The notes beneath the pieces are model-generated. The model ran no database searches and was not told the DNA's origin. It saw only the letters and a list, made by a program, of their open reading frames with translations. This document shows positions 2,799-9,442 of a stretch of DNA of 64,000 nucleotides, one piece after another. How positions within the stretch are numbered: the stretch's first letter is position 1; every line of letters begins with the position of its first letter. This DNA comes from Escherichia coli. Its GTDB lineage: Bacteria > Pseudomonadota > Gammaproteobacteria > Enterobacterales > Enterobacteriaceae. The stretch lies in the NCBI RefSeq assembly GCF_024223415.1, contig NZ_CP100502.1, one strand, 5' to 3'. Position numbers and translations under genes: made by a program.

Positions 2799-2862
2799 TT
2801 AACCCTTGCCGTCTGCCTGTGCAGGCGGCAGGATACGTTCAGACATCTCACCAGGAGGAACC

Positions 2863-3804
2863 GTGAGTAAGAAGAAAAACACCACAACGCCCACGCCGCA
2901 TGATGCCGCGTTCCGGTCGTTCCTGGCGAATCCCGACGTCGCCAGAGATTTTCTGGAACTGCATCTTCCTGCGGAGTACCGGCAGTTGTGCGACCTGTCC
3001 ACGCTGAAGCTGGAACCCGCCACCTTTGTTGAGCCGGACCTGCATCAGTACGCCAGCGATATCCTCTGGAGCGTGAAAACCACCGGGGGTGAAGATGGTT
3101 ATGTTTATACGCTCATCGAGCACCAGAGCACCGAAAATCTGTACATGCCTTTTCGCATGTTACGCTACAGTGTGGCGGCGATGCAGAGACATCTGGAGCA
3201 GCACAAAACGTTGCCACTGGTCATTCCGGTGCTGTTCTATCACGGTGAGCGCAGCCCGTACCCGTACAGCATGAACTGGCTGGACTGTTTTGAGAATCCG
3301 GCGCTTGCGGCTAAAATATACACAAAGCCGTTTCCGCTGGTTGATATCACTGTCGTTGATGACAATGAAATCATGAACCATCGCCGGATGGCCGCACTGA
3401 CGCTGCTGATGAAGCATATCCGTCAGCGGGATATGCTGATGTGTCTGGACAACCTGGTCAGAGCACTGCAGGACATCCAGGATGAAGAGCAGATTACAGT
3501 TCTTTTCAACTATCTGCTTAATGGCAGCGAACATGTAACGGTTGAATTTTTGCAGACGCTGGCGCAGCGACTGCCGCAGCACGAGGACAGCATTATGACA
3601 CTGGCAGAACGTCTTAAGCAGGAAGGTATCCAGCAAGGTATCCAGCAGGGTATCCAGCAGGGTATCCAGCAGGGAGTTCAGCAGGGGGCGCTTCAAAAAG
3701 CACGGGAAATCGCCCGGGAGCTCCGGAACGCGGGAATGCCGGCAGCACAAATCTGTCAGCTGACCGGACTTTCTGAAGCTGAACTGAAGAACATCACTCA
3801 CTGA
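2863..3804 (+). CDS. Rpn-family (YhgA-like, PD-(D/E)XK) recombination-promoting nuclease, 313 aa, GTG start
   Basis: N-terminus VSKKKNTTTPTPHDAAFRSFLANPDVARDFLELHLP is typical of E. coli RpnA-E/YhgA-like proteins; SD aggagg at 2853-2858; C-terminal tail with GIQQ repeats; ORF-table start at 2806 is a TTG extension. Confidence 0.8.
   Translation: MSKKKNTTTPTPHDAAFRSFLANPDVARDFLELHLPAEYRQLCDLSTLKLEPATFVEPDLHQYASDILWSVKTTGGEDGYVYTLIEHQSTENLYMPFRMLRYSVAAMQRHLEQHKTLPLVIPVLFYHGERSPYPYSMNWLDCFENPALAAKIYTKPFPLVDITVVDDNEIMNHRRMAALTLLMKHIRQRDMLMCLDNLVRALQDIQDEEQITVLFNYLLNGSEHVTVEFLQTLAQRLPQHEDSIMTLAERLKQEGIQQGIQQGIQQGIQQGVQQGALQKAREIARELRNAGMPAAQICQLTGLSEAELKNITH
3625..3684 (+). repeat. Five tandem 12-bp units (ggtatccagcaR) encoding (GIQQ)n inside the Rpn C-terminal tail
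   Basis: Direct reading: ggtatccagcaa ggtatccagcag ggtatccagcag ggtatccagcag ggagttcagcag. Confidence 0.9.
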
Positions 3805-4066: not shown

Positions 4067-4318
4067 TCACACATCCTCTGCCGTTTCCCCCAGTTCATTT
4101 TCCAGACGCCTGATGATATCTGCCTTGCGCATCCCCTGCATGTGAGGCAGCAGGTCACGGACTGAAAGTGCCTGGGTGGTCCTCCAGACGGTGACATCCA
4201 CCTGTTCCGCATTTTCCCAGGCGTGCCATGTTCTCTGTGTCACGCCAAATTCTCTGGCCGCTTTTTCGCGTGACCAGAGCATGCTTTTTCGCCAGATTCG
4301 CAGTTCCCAGCCGGTCAT
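4067..4318 (-). CDS. Small helix-turn-helix (XRE/Cro-like) DNA-binding protein, 83 aa
   Basis: ORF track; HTH-like segment WSREKAAREFGVTQRTWHAWE; operator-like palindromes immediately upstream of its start. Confidence 0.55.
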   Translation of the reverse strand: MTGWELRIWRKSMLWSREKAAREFGVTQRTWHAWENAEQVDVTVWRTTQALSVRDLLPHMQGMRKADIIRRLENELGETAEDV

Positions 4319-4331
4319 AAAACACCTTTGA

Positions 4332-4420
4332 AAAAGTGAAAAAACTTCACTTTATTTTATCACCATAACCACCAAATCAGCGCGAAAAATAAGTGTGAAA
4401 AAGTGAAGGAATTTCACTTT
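4332..4420. promoter_or_regulatory. Promoter/operator region with two inverted repeats AAGTGAA-N-TTCACTT
   Basis: aaagtgaaaaaacttcacttt (4332-4352) and aagtgaaggaatttcacttt (4401-4420) directly upstream of the HTH gene. Confidence 0.45.
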
Positions 4421-4519
4421 TTTTGATTGTAGGTGTCGTGCTGTTTTCTCTGTTTTCACCTGTGCGGGAGTGGTGTGCCAGTGACCACCACATGCCATTG
4501 TTGCGCCGTCGTTTTTCTT

Positions 4520-4855
4520 CAGTCGCGCCGGATGCGGCGCTCCCTGCACACCTTACGGTGTGTAAGGCCACTGCGCCTGATGGCGCAGCTGTCTCTGCCT
4601 GTCTGCCGCCGCACTGCGGCCTGTTCTCCGCAGATGGACTTTCCGGGGGTACATACACGACCACATCCCGTTTCAGTCGTCCAGGGGAGAGATGTACCAG
4701 CCACAAAACTTTTTGCCGCAGGCGTCAAAAACTTTTGCGTCTGCCCCCGGACAACTGCCCCGTGACGTGGTGAGCGTCCCCCGTCGGAAAGGTCCACTGC
4801 GGGGAAATCCCCGAAGACCCGGACGGCAGAAGGAGCTTCGCTCCTCCGGGAAATG
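4520..4855 (+). promoter_or_regulatory. Frpo/ssi-like repeat copy B (candidate single-stranded-DNA promoter), ending just before the SD/ATG of the 4898 gene
   Basis: Paralog of 1625-1960; shares blocks ggcgctccctgcacaccttacggtgtgtaaggc and tggactttccggggg...ccccgtgacgtggtga...ggaaaggtccactgcgggga. Confidence 0.5.
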
Positions 4856-4897
4856 ACCTGGCTGACCCGGCAGTCGTGACGATGAGGAGACAATGTG

Positions 4898-5746
4898 ATG
4901 AATCAGACTTTACCCACTGCTGACCTGAATACTGCCGGCACGACAGATGTTATTCCGTCTGTGGCCATCGACCGCATCATCGCGCAGCGTAACGAAGGTA
5001 TTGCACTGTTCATGCAGGCGATGGAATGCCTGGCGACAGCGCGCAGGATTCTGCTTGATGCGTCAGGTGATATTTTTCTTTACGGTTTTGAAGACTGCGT
5101 GACCGACTCCGTTCGGTGCATGGATAAACCGGAAGAAGCGAAAAGGAATATCACCCGTCTTGCCGACCGGAAAATCTGGGACCGCCTGATGACGGATACG
5201 GGGATGTACACCTTCATGAGTTCATGTCAGCGTGATGAGTGGAACAGCCAGCTGATGAGCGACACCTGTCCTGAAATCACCCTGGACAATGTACTGGCAA
5301 CTTTTCGCCATCTGAATGCCAGTAAGATGCAGACATTTGAACAGGGACTGATTGATGTCTACCGGAAATTGTCATGGGATTACAGAACCAATAATCCCTG
5401 CCGTCTGGGCAAGAGAATCATTATTGAAAACCTGCTGTACCGCTGGAGTAACGGGCGTGTTACGCTGGACTGCAGCGGACGGGAGGCACTGGATGACCTG
5501 GTACGTCCGTTTTATCTGCTGGAGGGGCGCAACGTTCCTGACTTCCGGAGCAGCATCGGGGCGCAGTACGGTGAATTTATCGGGAACGGCGACAATGTCG
5601 GTAAGCTGTTAGAAGGGGAATATTTTACGGTGCGTGGCTACCAGAAAGGGACCGTACACATTGTCTTTAAGCGTCCTGACCTTGTTGAAAAACTGAATGA
5701 TATTATTGCACGGCATTATCCTGGTTCATTGCCGCCACGAGTCTGA
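4898..5746 (+). CDS. Hypothetical leading-region protein, 282 aa
   Basis: ORF track (4895 is GTG; ATG at 4898 has SD gaggag 8 nt upstream); terminator follows. Confidence 0.6.
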   Translation: MNQTLPTADLNTAGTTDVIPSVAIDRIIAQRNEGIALFMQAMECLATARRILLDASGDIFLYGFEDCVTDSVRCMDKPEEAKRNITRLADRKIWDRLMTDTGMYTFMSSCQRDEWNSQLMSDTCPEITLDNVLATFRHLNASKMQTFEQGLIDVYRKLSWDYRTNNPCRLGKRIIIENLLYRWSNGRVTLDCSGREALDDLVRPFYLLEGRNVPDFRSSIGAQYGEFIGNGDNVGKLLEGEYFTVRGYQKGTVHIVFKRPDLVEKLNDIIARHYPGSLPPRV

Positions 5747-5756
5747 TTAAACAGAA

Positions 5757-5787
5757 AAGCCCTGGTATTTATGCCGGGGCTTTTTTT
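5757..5787 (+). terminator. Rho-independent terminator
   Basis: Stem gccctgg / ccggggc followed by ttttttt. Confidence 0.75.
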
Positions 5788-5830
5788 CTGTAATCATCAT
5801 AATATCAGAACATGATGTGACATTGTCACA

Positions 5831-6172
5831 TCAATTGTTGTTCATATCGATGCCATCTTTCCTGGCTGAATCTGTCTTTTTAGATGCTGTTTTAGAGGAA
5901 GAACGGCGGGATGGCTTTTTCGATTCTGCTTCCCGAATAATGTCACGAAGTGCCTTCTCTCCTACTTCATACCCTGCATTTTTGAGCGTATCACGAACAT
6001 CTGCCAGTGTATAACCCTTTGTCCTTACCAGAACAATAATGTCATCACGAATGGCATCAAGAAAATCACGCAATGTTTTCCGTTGAGCGGTGAGATCTGG
6101 CAATTCCGATAAAGCAGCTTTTGCCAGCTGGATGTCATCATCTGAGTAAAATTTTTTAGAAGCCATTGGCAC
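5831..6172 (-). CDS. Hypothetical protein with Lys/Ser-rich basic C-terminal tail, 113 aa, adjacent to oriT and divergent from nikA
   Basis: ORF track; basic tail suggests nucleic-acid binding; function not recognisable. Confidence 0.45.
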   Translation of the reverse strand: MPMASKKFYSDDDIQLAKAALSELPDLTAQRKTLRDFLDAIRDDIIVLVRTKGYTLADVRDTLKNAGYEVGEKALRDIIREAESKKPSRRSSSKTASKKTDSARKDGIDMNNN

Positions 6173-6199
6173 TTTCTCTCCGTTTCATGTTGAAGTCTG

Positions 6200-6360
6200 A
6201 TTTTATCATCAAAAACTGACTCCTGGCAGGGCTGCGCCCTGCCTCTGCCGTCTGCATAAGACTATGATGCACAAAAATAACAGGCTATAATGGCCTGAAA
6301 AACGGGACAGGATGTGCAATTGTAATACCGTCACACGCGACGCTATTACAATTGCCATCT
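6200..6360. other. oriT region (origin of transfer); contains a perfect 12-bp inverted repeat gcaattgtaata (6316-6327) / tattacaattgc (6344-6355)
   Basis: Non-coding stretch immediately upstream of nikA-nikB; inverted repeat read directly; nick site not determinable by eye. Confidence 0.6.
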
Positions 6361-6399
6361 GGTCAGGGCTTCGCCCCGACACCCCGTAAGGAGCCTGAA

Positions 6400-6732
6400 G
6401 TGAGTGATAGTGCGGTAAGAAAGAAAAGTGAGGTACGGCAAAAGACAGTTGTCAGGACACTCAGATTCTCTCCTGTTGAGGATGAAACCATCAGGAAAAA
6501 AGCTGAAGATTCCGGACTTACTGTATCTGCTTACATCCGAAATGCAGCACTGAATAAGCGAATTAACTCCCGTACAGATGATGCTTTTCTGAAGGAGTTA
6601 ATGAGACTGGGAAGGATGCAGAAGCATCTGTTTGTTCAGGGAAAAAGAACCGGTGACAAGGAATACGCAGAAGTGCTTGTTGCCATAACCGAACTTACAA
6701 ATACATTGCGTAAACAGTTAATGGAAGGTTGA
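6400..6732 (+). CDS. nikA: NikA, relaxosome accessory protein (ribbon-helix-helix), 110 aa, GTG start
   Basis: SD aaggag at 6388-6393; 110 aa matches R64 NikA as I recall; directly precedes the relaxase gene. Confidence 0.8.
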   Translation: MSDSAVRKKSEVRQKTVVRTLRFSPVEDETIRKKAEDSGLTVSAYIRNAALNKRINSRTDDAFLKELMRLGRMQKHLFVQGKRTGDKEYAEVLVAITELTNTLRKQLMEG

Positions 6733-6742
6733 GGATTCTCCG

Positions 6743-9442
6743 GTGAATGCAGTCATTCCGAAAAAGAGAAGGGACGGCAAGTCTTCGTTCGAAGACCTGG
6801 TATCCTACGTCTCTGTCCGGGATGACATGACCGATGAGGAACTGGATTTATCTTCTTCTTCGCAGGCTGAACAACCGCACCGAAGCCGTTTCAGTCGCCT
6901 TGTTGATTATGCGACACGTCTTCGAAATGAGTCATTCGTGGCGCTGGTTGATGTCATGAAGGACGGCTGCGAATGGGTCAACTTTTATGGTGTCACCTGC
7001 TTTCATAACTGTACTTCTCTTGAAACTGCCGCTGCAGATATGGAGTACATTGCCCGGCAGGCACACTATGCAAAAGATGACACTGATCCTGTTTTTCACT
7101 ACATCCTTTCCTGGCAGTCACATGAAAGCCCGCGTCCGGAACAGATTTATGACAGTGTACGTCATACGCTGAAATCACTCGGCCTTGCCGACCATCAGTA
7201 TGTCTCTGCCGTGCATACTGATACAGATAATCTGCACGTCCATGTGGCTGTTAACCGGGTACACCCTGAAACGGGTTATCTGAACCGGTTATCCTGGAGT
7301 CAGGAAAAACTCAGTCGTGCCTGCCGTGAGCTTGAACTGAAGCATGGTTTTGCTCCGGATAACGGTTGCTGGGTCCATGCACCGGGAAATCGTATCGTTC
7401 GCAAAACCGCCGTTGAACGTGATCGCCAGAACGCGTGGACACGCGGGAAAAAACAAACTTTTCGCGAGTATGTCGCGCAGACAGCGGTCGCTGGTTTACG
7501 CAGTGAACCTGTAAATGACTGGTTATCCCTGCATCGTCGTCTTGCGGAAGATGGTCTGTACCTGTCTCAGATGGACGGAAAATTTCTGGTGATGGATGGC
7601 TGGGATCGCAACAGGGAAGGTGTACAGCTTGACTCGTTTGGTCCCTCCTGGTGTGCAGAAAAACTCATGAAAAAAATGGGTGACTACACGCCAGTACCAA
7701 AAGACATTTTCAGCCAGGTGGAAGCACCAGGACGCTATAATCCGGACTTCATTGCCGCTGATGTTCGCCCGGAAAAAATCGCTGAAACAGAAAGTCTGCA
7801 GCAGTATGCCTGTCGTCATCTTGGAGAACGTCTGCCGGAAATGGCACGGGAAGGACGGCTGGAAAACTGCCAGGCTATTCACCGCACACTGGCTGAAGCG
7901 GGATTATGGATGCGTGTTCAGCATGGTCACCTGGTTATCTGTGACGGTTATGATCATAACCAGACTCCCGTTCGTGCTGACAGCGTATGGTCGCTGCTGA
8001 CGCTCGACAATGTGAATCAACTCGATGGTGGCTGGCAGCCTGTACCAACAGATATTTTCCGCCAGGTTACGCCAACAGAACGCTTCCGTGGTCGTCGTAT
8101 GGAGAGCTGTCCTGCGACCGATAAAGAATGGCACCGTATGCGTACAGGCACGGGGCCGCAGGGGGCTATCAAACGCGAACTGTTTTCTGACAAAGAAAGT
8201 CTGTGGGGATACAGCATCAGCCATTGTAGCCCTCAGATTGAAGAAATGATCACACAGGGTGAGTTTACCTGGCAGCGTTGTCATGAGCTGTTTGCACAAC
8301 AGGGACTGATGCTACAGAAACAACATCACGGGCTTGTTGTCGTTGATGCCTTTAATCATGAGCAAACGCCGGTGAAGGCCAGCAGCATTCATCCTGATCT
8401 GACACTGGGGCGTGCAGAGCCACAGGCCGGACCTTTTGTGAGTGCCCCAGCAGATTTGTTTGACAGGGTGCAACCTGAAAGTCGCTATAACCCGGAGCTG
8501 GCTGTCAGTGACAGGTACGGGGTCAGCAGTAAACGTGACCCAATGCTGCGCCGGCAGCGACGTGAAGCCAGAGCTGAGGCCCGTGCTGACCTGCGTGCCC
8601 GCTATCTGGCATGGCGTGAACAATGGCGTAAACCAGATCTGCGTTATGGGGAACGTTGTCGGGAAATTCATCAGGCATGCCGTCTGCGGAAGTCACACAT
8701 TCGTGCGCAGTACGATGATCCGGCATTACGTAAGCTGCATTATCACATTGCAGAAGTTCAGCGAATGCAGGCATTGATCAGGCTGAAAGAAGACATCAGG
8801 GATGAGCGACAGAAACTTATTGCTGATGGGAAATGGTATCCACCCTCTTACCGTCAGTGGGTCGAAATTCAGGCTGCTCAGGGAGACAGGGCTGCTGTAT
8901 CGCAGCTGAGAGGCTGGGATTATCGCGATCGCCGTAAAGACAGGTCACGCACAACGACGACAGACCGCTGTGTCGTGCTTTGTGAACCGGGCGGAACGCC
9001 GGTATACGGTAATACCGGTGATCTCGAGGCCCGTCTGCAGAAGAACGGGAGTGTTCGTTTCCGTGACCGTCGGACGGGAGAGTTTGTCTGTACGGATTAT
9101 GGTGACAGGGTTGTTTTCCGTAATCACCATGACCGCAATGCGCTGGCAGATAAACTGGATTTGATTGCACCGGTATTATTCGGGCGTGATCCACGCATGG
9201 GTTTTGAACCAGAAGGAAACGACAAACAATTTAACCAGGTCTTTGCTGAAATGGTTGCCTGGCATAATGTGACAGGCCGTACCGGTCACGAAGACTACAG
9301 GATTACGCGACCGGACGTGGATCATCACCGTGAAGGAAGTGAACGCTACTACCGCGATTATATCGCGGCGAACAGCAACAATGACGCATCACTGCCTCCG
9401 CCGGAGCAGGATAAACGCTGGGAACCGCCTTCTCCAGGTTAA
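6743..9442 (+). CDS. nikB: NikB relaxase (MobP-type), 899 aa
   Basis: ORF track; N-terminal HxH motif region (HTDTDNLHVHVAVNRVHPETG); length equals R64 NikB (899 aa) as I recall. Confidence 0.85.
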   Translation: MNAVIPKKRRDGKSSFEDLVSYVSVRDDMTDEELDLSSSSQAEQPHRSRFSRLVDYATRLRNESFVALVDVMKDGCEWVNFYGVTCFHNCTSLETAAADMEYIARQAHYAKDDTDPVFHYILSWQSHESPRPEQIYDSVRHTLKSLGLADHQYVSAVHTDTDNLHVHVAVNRVHPETGYLNRLSWSQEKLSRACRELELKHGFAPDNGCWVHAPGNRIVRKTAVERDRQNAWTRGKKQTFREYVAQTAVAGLRSEPVNDWLSLHRRLAEDGLYLSQMDGKFLVMDGWDRNREGVQLDSFGPSWCAEKLMKKMGDYTPVPKDIFSQVEAPGRYNPDFIAADVRPEKIAETESLQQYACRHLGERLPEMAREGRLENCQAIHRTLAEAGLWMRVQHGHLVICDGYDHNQTPVRADSVWSLLTLDNVNQLDGGWQPVPTDIFRQVTPTERFRGRRMESCPATDKEWHRMRTGTGPQGAIKRELFSDKESLWGYSISHCSPQIEEMITQGEFTWQRCHELFAQQGLMLQKQHHGLVVVDAFNHEQTPVKASSIHPDLTLGRAEPQAGPFVSAPADLFDRVQPESRYNPELAVSDRYGVSSKRDPMLRRQRREARAEARADLRARYLAWREQWRKPDLRYGERCREIHQACRLRKSHIRAQYDDPALRKLHYHIAEVQRMQALIRLKEDIRDERQKLIADGKWYPPSYRQWVEIQAAQGDRAAVSQLRGWDYRDRRKDRSRTTTTDRCVVLCEPGGTPVYGNTGDLEARLQKNGSVRFRDRRTGEFVCTDYGDRVVFRNHHDRNALADKLDLIAPVLFGRDPRMGFEPEGNDKQFNQVFAEMVAWHNVTGRTGHEDYRITRPDVDHHREGSERYYRDYIAANSNNDASLPPPEQDKRWEPPSPG

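Follow-up and report, generated by a model that had tools for sequence, protein, structure and literature searches.

Introduction

A conserved gene order, in which a small gene is the first on the leading side of the nick site (nic) of the origin of transfer (oriT) and diverges from the relaxase operon, is known for stbA, traK of RP4, mobC of pTF-FC2, and yciA of R721, in the relaxase groups MOBF11, MOBP11, MOBP6, and MOBP13/14 (Guynet et al., PMC3098194). StbA of plasmid R388 is a transcriptional repressor that acts through its N-terminal domain (N-domain) (bioRxiv 10.1101/2022.04.29.490116), and deletion of stbA raises R388 transfer 50-fold (PMC3098194; bioRxiv 10.1101/2022.04.29.490116). 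The DNA-binding sites of both StbA and its reported homolog, TraK of RP4, lie between nic and the respective gene (PMC3098194). IncI1 plasmids, which belong to MOBP12, are absent from the list of StbA-bearing groups in that study (PMC3098194) and from a 2022 list of plasmid taxonomic units. Here, we analyzed a 64,000-nucleotide stretch of Escherichia coli DNA (contig NZ_CP100502.1; hereafter, the window), which is the backbone of an IncI1 resistance plasmid and shares 99.9-100% identity with ColIb-P9 and hundreds of other IncI1 plasmids over positions 5700-6450, and focused on yggA, the minus-strand gene next to oriT (coding sequence 5831-6166; 111 residues plus stop). Our comparisons lead us to favor, with confidence slightly above even, a reading of YggA as a stand-alone helix-turn-helix (HTH) protein of the StbA/TraK superfamily that negatively regulates nikAB, probably together with its own gene, and that is dispensable for transfer.

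Repression and dispensability for transfer are both known from the literature on relatives. The gene, named yggA in R64 and Hp23 in pESBL (PMC4288162; PMC6112013), has a counterpart in the IncM plasmid pCTX-M3, whose Orf35 protein is 32% identical to R64 YggA. In the orf35::cat mutant of pCTX-M3, the nikA, nikB, and traH transcripts rose 40-, 23-, and 80-fold and mobilization of an oriT plasmid rose more than 200-fold, with self-transfer remaining normal; the authors proposed an orf35-dependent repression and saw no known DNA-binding motif in Orf35 (PMC6112013). Transposon sequencing (TnSeq) of pESBL assigned YggA/Hp23 probabilities of 0.99 for being non-essential, 0.00 for maintenance, and 0.01 for transfer (PMC4288162). 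In the transposon-directed insertion site sequencing (TraDIS) screen of pMS7163B, gene 00750, which we matched to yggA by position and size, had a log2 fold change of +0.47 (PMC10286972).

Results and Discussion

The N-domain of YggA is very probably of the StbA type

Modeling of YggA by AlphaFold with a 109-sequence alignment predicts a two-part build, namely a helical N-domain followed by a disordered basic tail. The modeled helices comprise residues 9-21, 32-50, 54-63, and 70-82 of an all-helical domain, with a mean predicted local distance difference test score (pLDDT) of 81.9, values of 89-95 over most of the N-domain and 72 in the 21-30 linker, and a drop to about 60-71 or lower after residue 82. 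Structure prediction, suggested as a check in the initial annotation of this locus, returned an all-helical N-domain and a low-confidence tail, and a Foldseek comparison of the model with the PDB, detailed below, returned nothing significant. The conserved helical domain corresponds to codons 1-82 (5921-6166, minus strand), carries the family motifs LPDLT and KGY, and includes the residues that are invariant in the YggA-family alignment, P23, D24, R29, K50, G51, and Y52. Against divergent copies, the ratio of nonsynonymous to synonymous substitution rates (dN/dS) is 0-0.16 for codons 1-82, which are under strong purifying selection, and 0.27-1.25 for the last 29 codons.

The variable tail (codons 83-111 plus stop; 5831-5920, minus strand) reads SKKPSRRSSSKTASKKTDSARKDGIDMNNN and ends in ...KDGIDMNNN. 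With six Lys, three Arg, and six Ser residues, an isoelectric point of 10.6, and a net charge of +6, it is the Lys/Ser-rich tail to which the initial annotation had drawn attention. The tail is real, and a net positive charge is found in 86% of the tails across the family, but its sequence is not conserved in the family alignments; it is the variable part of the protein, and the informative, conserved part is the N-domain.

As a single sequence, YggA gave nothing significant against Pfam and NCBIfam, where only sub-threshold matches to transposase HTH regions appeared, no match in the PDB by phmmer, and only I-complex relatives in a word-indexed protein search. Pfam MobC (PF05713) was not matched by YggA at E ≤ 1, and it is not among the 25 families listed for the 109 members of the family at E ≤ 0.01. 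When searched against Pfam and NCBIfam, these 109 members produced scattered weak HTH-type matches (Sigma70_r4_2, MerR_1, HTH_Tnp_Tc3_2, and resolvase or IS transposase HTH regions), a pattern that fits an HTH and names no family.

Profile comparisons pointed to StbA. The 109-sequence YggA profile matched the StbA DNA-binding domain in the PDB (7pc1) with an E-value of 7.1e-5 and covered the whole HTH. An independent alignment was built from five genuine StbA proteins, each encoded ahead of stbB (R388-like, pWW0, Xanthomonas, pMBUI4, and Moraxella), and was compared by hhalign with a narrow YggA/Orf35 profile (probability 81%, E 1.2e-5) and with a wide YggA profile (probability 95.6%, E 1.2e-8, 71 columns). 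Helices 2-4 of YggA (32-50, 54-63, and 70-82) make up a tri-helical HTH with homology to residues 1-75 of StbA. Ranked third in the comparisons that link YggA to StbA was the PadR-subfamily-II protein Rv3488, the closest structural relative of StbA according to the StbA authors. We assign the N-domain to the StbA type, and hold this assignment to be very probable, because the shared gene position described below tips the balance; gene order weighs as much here as the scores do.

Gene order is shared with stbA and traK, and the ATPase partner is missing

In all five distant plasmid loci (an IncL pOXA-48-like plasmid, a Salmonella IncFIB plasmid, a Klebsiella IncFII plasmid with an I-type mating system, a Pantoea mobilizable plasmid, and Tatumella pTA1), the yggA homolog adjoins and diverges from nikA/mobA, with a MOBP relaxase gene beyond. 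The same divergent yggA-nikA-relaxase layout was present in five of five I-complex-like variants, and metagenomic contigs with more distant members carried a divergent NikA-like gene in four of four cases and a relaxase gene in both contigs that were long enough. An identical layout, with the gene first on the leading side of nic, was found at the stbA loci (R388-type, pWW0, Xanthomonas, pMBUI4, and Moraxella) and at the RP4-type traK locus, including the same strand relation of the gene to the nick motif; the StbA and TraK loci were reached through an IncW relative of R388 and through pBS228, respectively.

The resemblance to StbA of R388 (PDB 7pc1, stbABC) thus comprises a tri-helical HTH N-domain with a disordered, poorly conserved C-terminal part, the first position on the leading side of nic in divergent orientation to the relaxase operon, and, as far as relatives have been studied, an inhibitory influence on conjugation or mobilization. 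The differences are equally clear. StbA is accompanied by a deviant Walker-A ATPase of the StbB/TraL type and by a third small gene, whereas yggA has neither stbB nor stbC. In R388, at least two direct 9-bp stbDR repeats with 2-bp spacers lie in the promoter of stbA itself and two sets of five form a centromere-like site, while yggA has no such array. YggA, with 111 residues, is shorter than StbA (about 140-175), and where R388 has a MOBF relaxase and a T-type system, yggA is linked to a MOBP12 relaxase and an I-type mating system.

No ATPase gene follows the yggA homolog in any of the five distant YggA-type loci, whereas one was present in every StbA or TraK locus examined. TraK of RP4 (from the traK-traL-traM leader operon) shares with YggA its position and strand relative to nic and its nature as a small basic protein, but its gene is followed by that of the TraL ATPase. 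The C-terminal end of TraK reads FTFNPTPDKKDLL, and the corresponding motif F..P.D..[DE][IL] is shared by 21 of the 64 distant family members, while all 45 of the closest YggA-type proteins lack it. Distant members that bear this TraK-like C-terminal motif precede a deviant Walker-A ATPase gene of the TraL/StbB type (L020, 1367-1528; L018, 3158-3883), and YggA-type members have neither; downstream of the distant member P0162, the next gene begins with MAKRIYLIGGSKGGVGKS, a deviant Walker A motif. This distribution suggests that the C-terminal motif is an ATPase-contact peptide that was lost together with the ATPase partner. When the StbA profile was compared directly with TraK by hhalign, the probability was 27%.

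Also close to YggA is Orf35 of pCTX-M3 (with its pOXA-48 counterpart), which is orthologous by sequence and by its position divergent from nikA, and which likewise has the two-part architecture and no ATPase partner gene. With YggA as the tblastn query, the IncL/M ortholog was recovered with 38.5% identity over 76 residues (E 2e-4). MobC of pTF-FC2, another small accessory gene beside oriT, is a listed StbA homolog that is paired with the MobD ATPase (PMC3098194).

We found no link between YggA or Orf35 and StbA in the full-text literature on StbA with IncI1 or IncL/M plasmids, although a mention elsewhere is possible, no link to StbA in the literature naming both yggA and R64, and no mention of StbA in a review of pCTX-M3. 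The assignment of YggA and Orf35 to the StbA family, and the recognition of a partner-less branch, therefore seem to be new, while the gene and this kind of system were already known.

A negative regulator of nikAB is favored over a transfer accessory or a positioning factor

Under the reading that we favor, YggA would be produced in cells that contain the double-stranded plasmid, and would bind the ~140 bp that separate nic from the start of yggA, where the putative yggA and nikAB promoters lie back to back. There, it would repress nikAB and probably also itself, such that relaxosome proteins would stay scarce and oriT processing would be damped, chiefly that of co-resident plasmids that carry only an oriT, whereas self-transfer would be independent of YggA. 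For IncI1, we infer DNA binding by YggA, the existence of its operator, and repression of nikAB from the comparisons with StbA and Orf35.

Several observations weigh against this reading. The C-terminal HTH of RpoN matches the 109-sequence profile as strongly as StbA does (E 7e-5), and Foldseek of the YggA model against the PDB gave nothing at E < 0.2 and placed StbA 7pc1 at rank 46, even if its target-normalised template modeling score (0.58) was the best among the 50 Foldseek matches listed; the StbA sequence signal could partly reflect a generic HTH pattern. At 6264-6272, the sequence ATGATGCAC is the reverse complement of GTGCATCAT, which matches the stbDR consensus of R388 (bioRxiv 10.1101/2022.04.29.490116) at eight of nine positions. 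This single 9-mer could be a chance occurrence, and we regard it as a lead only and do not claim it as a site; the stbDR core 8-mer TGCATCAT is not enriched in the window (4 found vs 4.4 expected), and the repeat finder detected no periodic direct repeats of the StbA type near yggA (5740-6420). Complementation by orf35 in pCTX-M3 was weak and condition-dependent (PMC6112013), and a cis effect of the cat cassette on the neighboring nikA promoter could explain the mutant. A strong limiter of transfer should also show enrichment of insertions, yet the log2 fold change in pMS7163B was just that +0.47 and no pESBL gene was classed as enriched (PMC10286972; PMC4288162). Finally, nikAB heads the operon encoding the type IV secretion system in IncM, where repression reaches traH, whereas IncI1 nikAB forms a separate oriT operon, apart from the type IV secretion genes; the consequences of nikAB repression in IncI1 may differ accordingly from those in IncM.

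TraK is a positive component of the RP4 relaxosome. By analogy, YggA might bind and bend DNA on the leading side of nic, helping NikA and NikB to open and nick oriT, a role for which its gene, located as traK is in RP4, would be well placed. A weak, in-register hhalign match of the wide YggA-family profile to TraK, confined to the HTH region (57.8%, E 1e-4, 46 columns), points in this direction, as does the report that TraK is an StbA homolog with a binding site between nic and traK (PMC3098194), and the basic tail would suit non-specific DNA contacts. The gene at this position is, however, dispensable in two I-complex plasmids, being neutral for transfer in the pESBL and pMS7163B transposon screens, loss of orf35 increases mobilization instead of lowering it, and YggA lacks the TraK-type C-terminal motif just as its locus lacks a TraL-like ATPase gene.

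Small plasmids argue in the same direction. Hundreds of plasmids of 1.5-6 kb from E. coli, Salmonella, Klebsiella, and Enterobacter carry only a piece of ~90 bp equivalent to 6299-6388, with 78-94% identity, which consists of the nick region, the 17-bp repeat, and the GC-rich block described below; the segment between nic and yggA, nikAB, and yggA itself are absent from them. This piece presumably corresponds to the fully active 92-bp minimal oriT, and the small plasmids look like IncI1 oriT mimics that rely on the relaxosome of a large plasmid. We consider a TraK-like positive accessory improbable. The oriT-linked role that the initial annotation had tentatively offered is accordingly retained in one form and dropped in another: a DNA-binding role is supported by the StbA-type HTH homology and by the adjacency to oriT and the relaxase gene, whereas a relaxosome accessory on which transfer depends finds no support in the two transposon screens, in the orf35 deletion, or in the oriT-only plasmids.

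The homology to StbA, which segregates its plasmid without a nucleoside triphosphatase (bioRxiv 10.1101/2022.04.29.490116), raises the alternative that YggA tethers plasmid copies to the nucleoid and balances stability against conjugation with no plasmid-encoded ATPase. YggA occupies the same locus and has a disordered C-terminal domain, which StbA requires for positioning. StbA, however, is needed for vegetative stability, while the gene in pESBL, with a TnSeq probability of 0.00 for being essential for maintenance, is not needed for it (PMC4288162). No centromere-like direct-repeat array was found at 5740-6420, and I-complex plasmids own parAB (ParB-family annotation; PMC10286972), which could also mask such a role. 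We judge a positioning function unlikely and retain, as the preferred reading, a repressor of nikAB that transfer does not require.

oriT, the transferred strand, and an establishment role

The 17-bp inverted repeat of oriT (6316-6355; 94% complementary by the repeat finder) is, we assume, the NikA-binding repeat of R64-type origins. Adjacent to it, on the minus strand, lies the nick region ATCCTG↓T (6313-6307), in which the nick is predicted between 6308 and 6307, in agreement with the MOBP nick consensus YATCCTG↓Y; for R64, we take the nick to be 8 bp from the 17-bp repeat. The surrounding ACATC(C/T)TGTCC is kept in all related loci, and the nick geometry agrees with that of oriT and traK in RP4. 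These coordinates bear out two earlier statements on the gene, namely that it lies right beside oriT and that it is transcribed away from it, with nic 141 nucleotides upstream of the yggA ATG on the minus strand.

Given the predicted nick, the minus strand would be the transferred strand and would depart 5' to 3' toward yggA, that is, toward lower coordinates. The sense strand of yggA is then the transferred strand, and so yggA could not be transcribed from the incoming single strand, while the plus-strand leading genes, including psiB, psiA, ardA, and the DUF4942 gene, can be read from it. This bears on another role that the location brings to mind, an establishment factor for the recipient that protects or processes incoming DNA: yggA comes first on the leading side of nic, and other leading-region genes have anti-defense or SOS-inhibition functions. 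Such a factor would nonetheless be unable to use a single-strand promoter and would have to wait for synthesis of the complementary strand; moreover, homologs accompany the relaxase module even on mobilizable plasmids without leading-region cargo, and the gene was neutral in the conjugation screens. We regard this role as very unlikely.

On the other side of oriT, nikA (6400-6732, plus strand), which is divergent from yggA, encodes a ribbon-helix-helix relaxosome accessory protein (Pfam NikA-like, 3.5e-22; NCBIfam MobA, 2e-35) and is followed by nikB (6743-9442). An open reading frame (ORF) of 57 residues at 6209-6382 overlaps this region and spans oriT.

Conserved elements in the spacer between yggA and nikA

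Footprinting of the spacer was performed on six aligned variants with identities down to ~65-75%. A consensus scan predicted a putative yggA promoter (6200-6229, minus strand) with an extended -10 element TGATAAAAT at 6208-6200 and a weak -35 element CTGCCA at 6229-6224; the two most divergent copies retain the extended -10 element, in the forms TGATAGAAT and TGTTATGAT. In the opposite direction, a putative nikAB promoter (6260-6291, plus strand) combines an invariant TATAAT at 6286-6291, which is likely to be the -10 element, with the conserved block ACTATGATGCAC (6260-6271) at the -35 position. With the -10 element at 6286-6291, nic would lie inside the nikAB transcript.

Overlapping the putative -35 element of yggA is an 8-bp inverted repeat, GGCAGGGC-tgc-GCCCTGCC (6225-6243), followed by an invariant CTCTGCCGTC (the whole element, 6225-6252). 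The symmetry of the repeat has been kept through two independent double changes (97.9% paired), and its exact sequence is unique in the window. In a DNA folding, the stretch of the transferred strand that runs from nic to yggA scores better than shuffled sequence (z -3.6), and the 8-bp repeat forms a hairpin. These conserved spacer elements are candidate operators or single-strand structures.

A second, GC-rich imperfect inverted repeat, GTCAGGGC-ttc-GCCCCGAC followed by ACCCC (6362-6388; repeat proper 6362-6380), is invariant in all NikA-type origins seen. It is related to the repeat at 6225-6243 through the core CAGGGCT(G/T)CGCCC, and the two, 137 bp apart, bracket the oriT core; the left one is restricted to I-complex-like plasmids. 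One might speculate that YggA-type proteins are a stripped-down StbA/TraK branch which, having lost the ATPase partner and the C-terminal motif, binds both bracketing repeats (6225-6243 and 6362-6380), clamps nic together with the nikAB promoter, and so rations relaxosome proteins against small oriT-mimic plasmids, a scheme to which we give only a slim chance.

Start codon, extent of the family, and database names

The longest ORF runs on the minus strand from a GTG at 6172 to the stop at 5831 and would encode the 113 residues initially annotated. The ORF exists on that strand, but its start is probably two codons too long, since all homologs in the alignments begin at the Met encoded at 6166 and since AAGGAG or AAGAGG precedes the equivalent ATG by 7-8 nucleotides in divergent copies. 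The true start is then probably the ATG at 6166, as in RefSeq (111 residues, WP_000157098.1; the coding sequence rests on the ORF list, the RefSeq annotation of ColIb-P9, and homolog N-termini), and the two extra codons GTG CCA (6167-6172), present in the 113-residue form only, are probably untranslated. A likely ribosome-binding site, GGAGAG (6176-6181, minus strand), lies 9 nucleotides upstream of this ATG, at the same place as AAGGAG or AAGAGG in divergent copies.

By tblastn, yggA was matched in 3556 plasmid records, of which ~1477 at less than 60% identity, and when 1.8 billion cluster representatives were searched exhaustively with the family profile, 587 matched at E ≤ 1e-3. A spurious ORF is ruled out by the dN/dS values and by the size of the family.

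Many GenBank and RefSeq entries label YggA as 'molybdopterin-guanine dinucleotide biosynthesis protein MobC', and newer ones as 'hypothetical protein'. The molybdopterin name is an annotation error in which the mobilization name 'MobC' was apparently expanded wrongly, and the link to MobC of pTF-FC2 probably explains the garbled RefSeq name.

Surroundings of yggA

Between the end of the DUF4942 gene at 5746 and the end of yggA at 5831, a GC-rich hairpin flanked by A and T runs (5755-5791) is probably a bidirectional terminator, which would make yggA a single-gene unit. A perfect 10-bp palindrome, TGATGTGACA-t-TGTCACATCA (5813-5833), lies over the yggA stop codon and occurs once in the window; it is conserved in close IncI1 and I-complex copies with an identical yggA 3' end, and resembles either a hairpin or the operator of a dimeric protein.

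The DUF4942 gene (4895-5746, plus strand; 283 residues) stands alone and converges on yggA, and a gene of the same size at its position was neutral in the transposon screens (pESBL Hp22 and pMS7163B 760). Farther into the leading region, a plus-strand gene at 2806-3804 encodes an Rpn/YhgA-like recombination-promoting nuclease (Pfam Transposase_31, 5e-78) with a short GIQQ repeat near its C-terminus. The orientation of yggA had been described as opposite to that of the other leading genes; most of these do lie on the plus strand, but an XRE-type HTH gene of 83 residues (4067-4318; weak Pfam HTH_31) and a small ORF (4352-4549) are also on the minus strand and therefore, like yggA, would be unreadable from the incoming single strand.

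Implications

The placement of YggA and Orf35 in the StbA/TraK group supplies both proteins with a DNA-binding domain. It adds MOBP12/13 plasmids that have I-type mating systems to those with the conserved module of an StbA-like gene, oriT, and a relaxase operon, and indicates that this module can exist without its ATPase. Among the major carriers of extended-spectrum β-lactamase and carbapenemase genes are IncI1, other I-complex, and IncL/M plasmids (pOXA-48 included), all of which retain a yggA-type gene beside oriT. If the proposed role is true, a YggA-type protein would set the availability of the relaxase on these plasmids, and with it the mobilization of the small plasmids that carry only an oriT.

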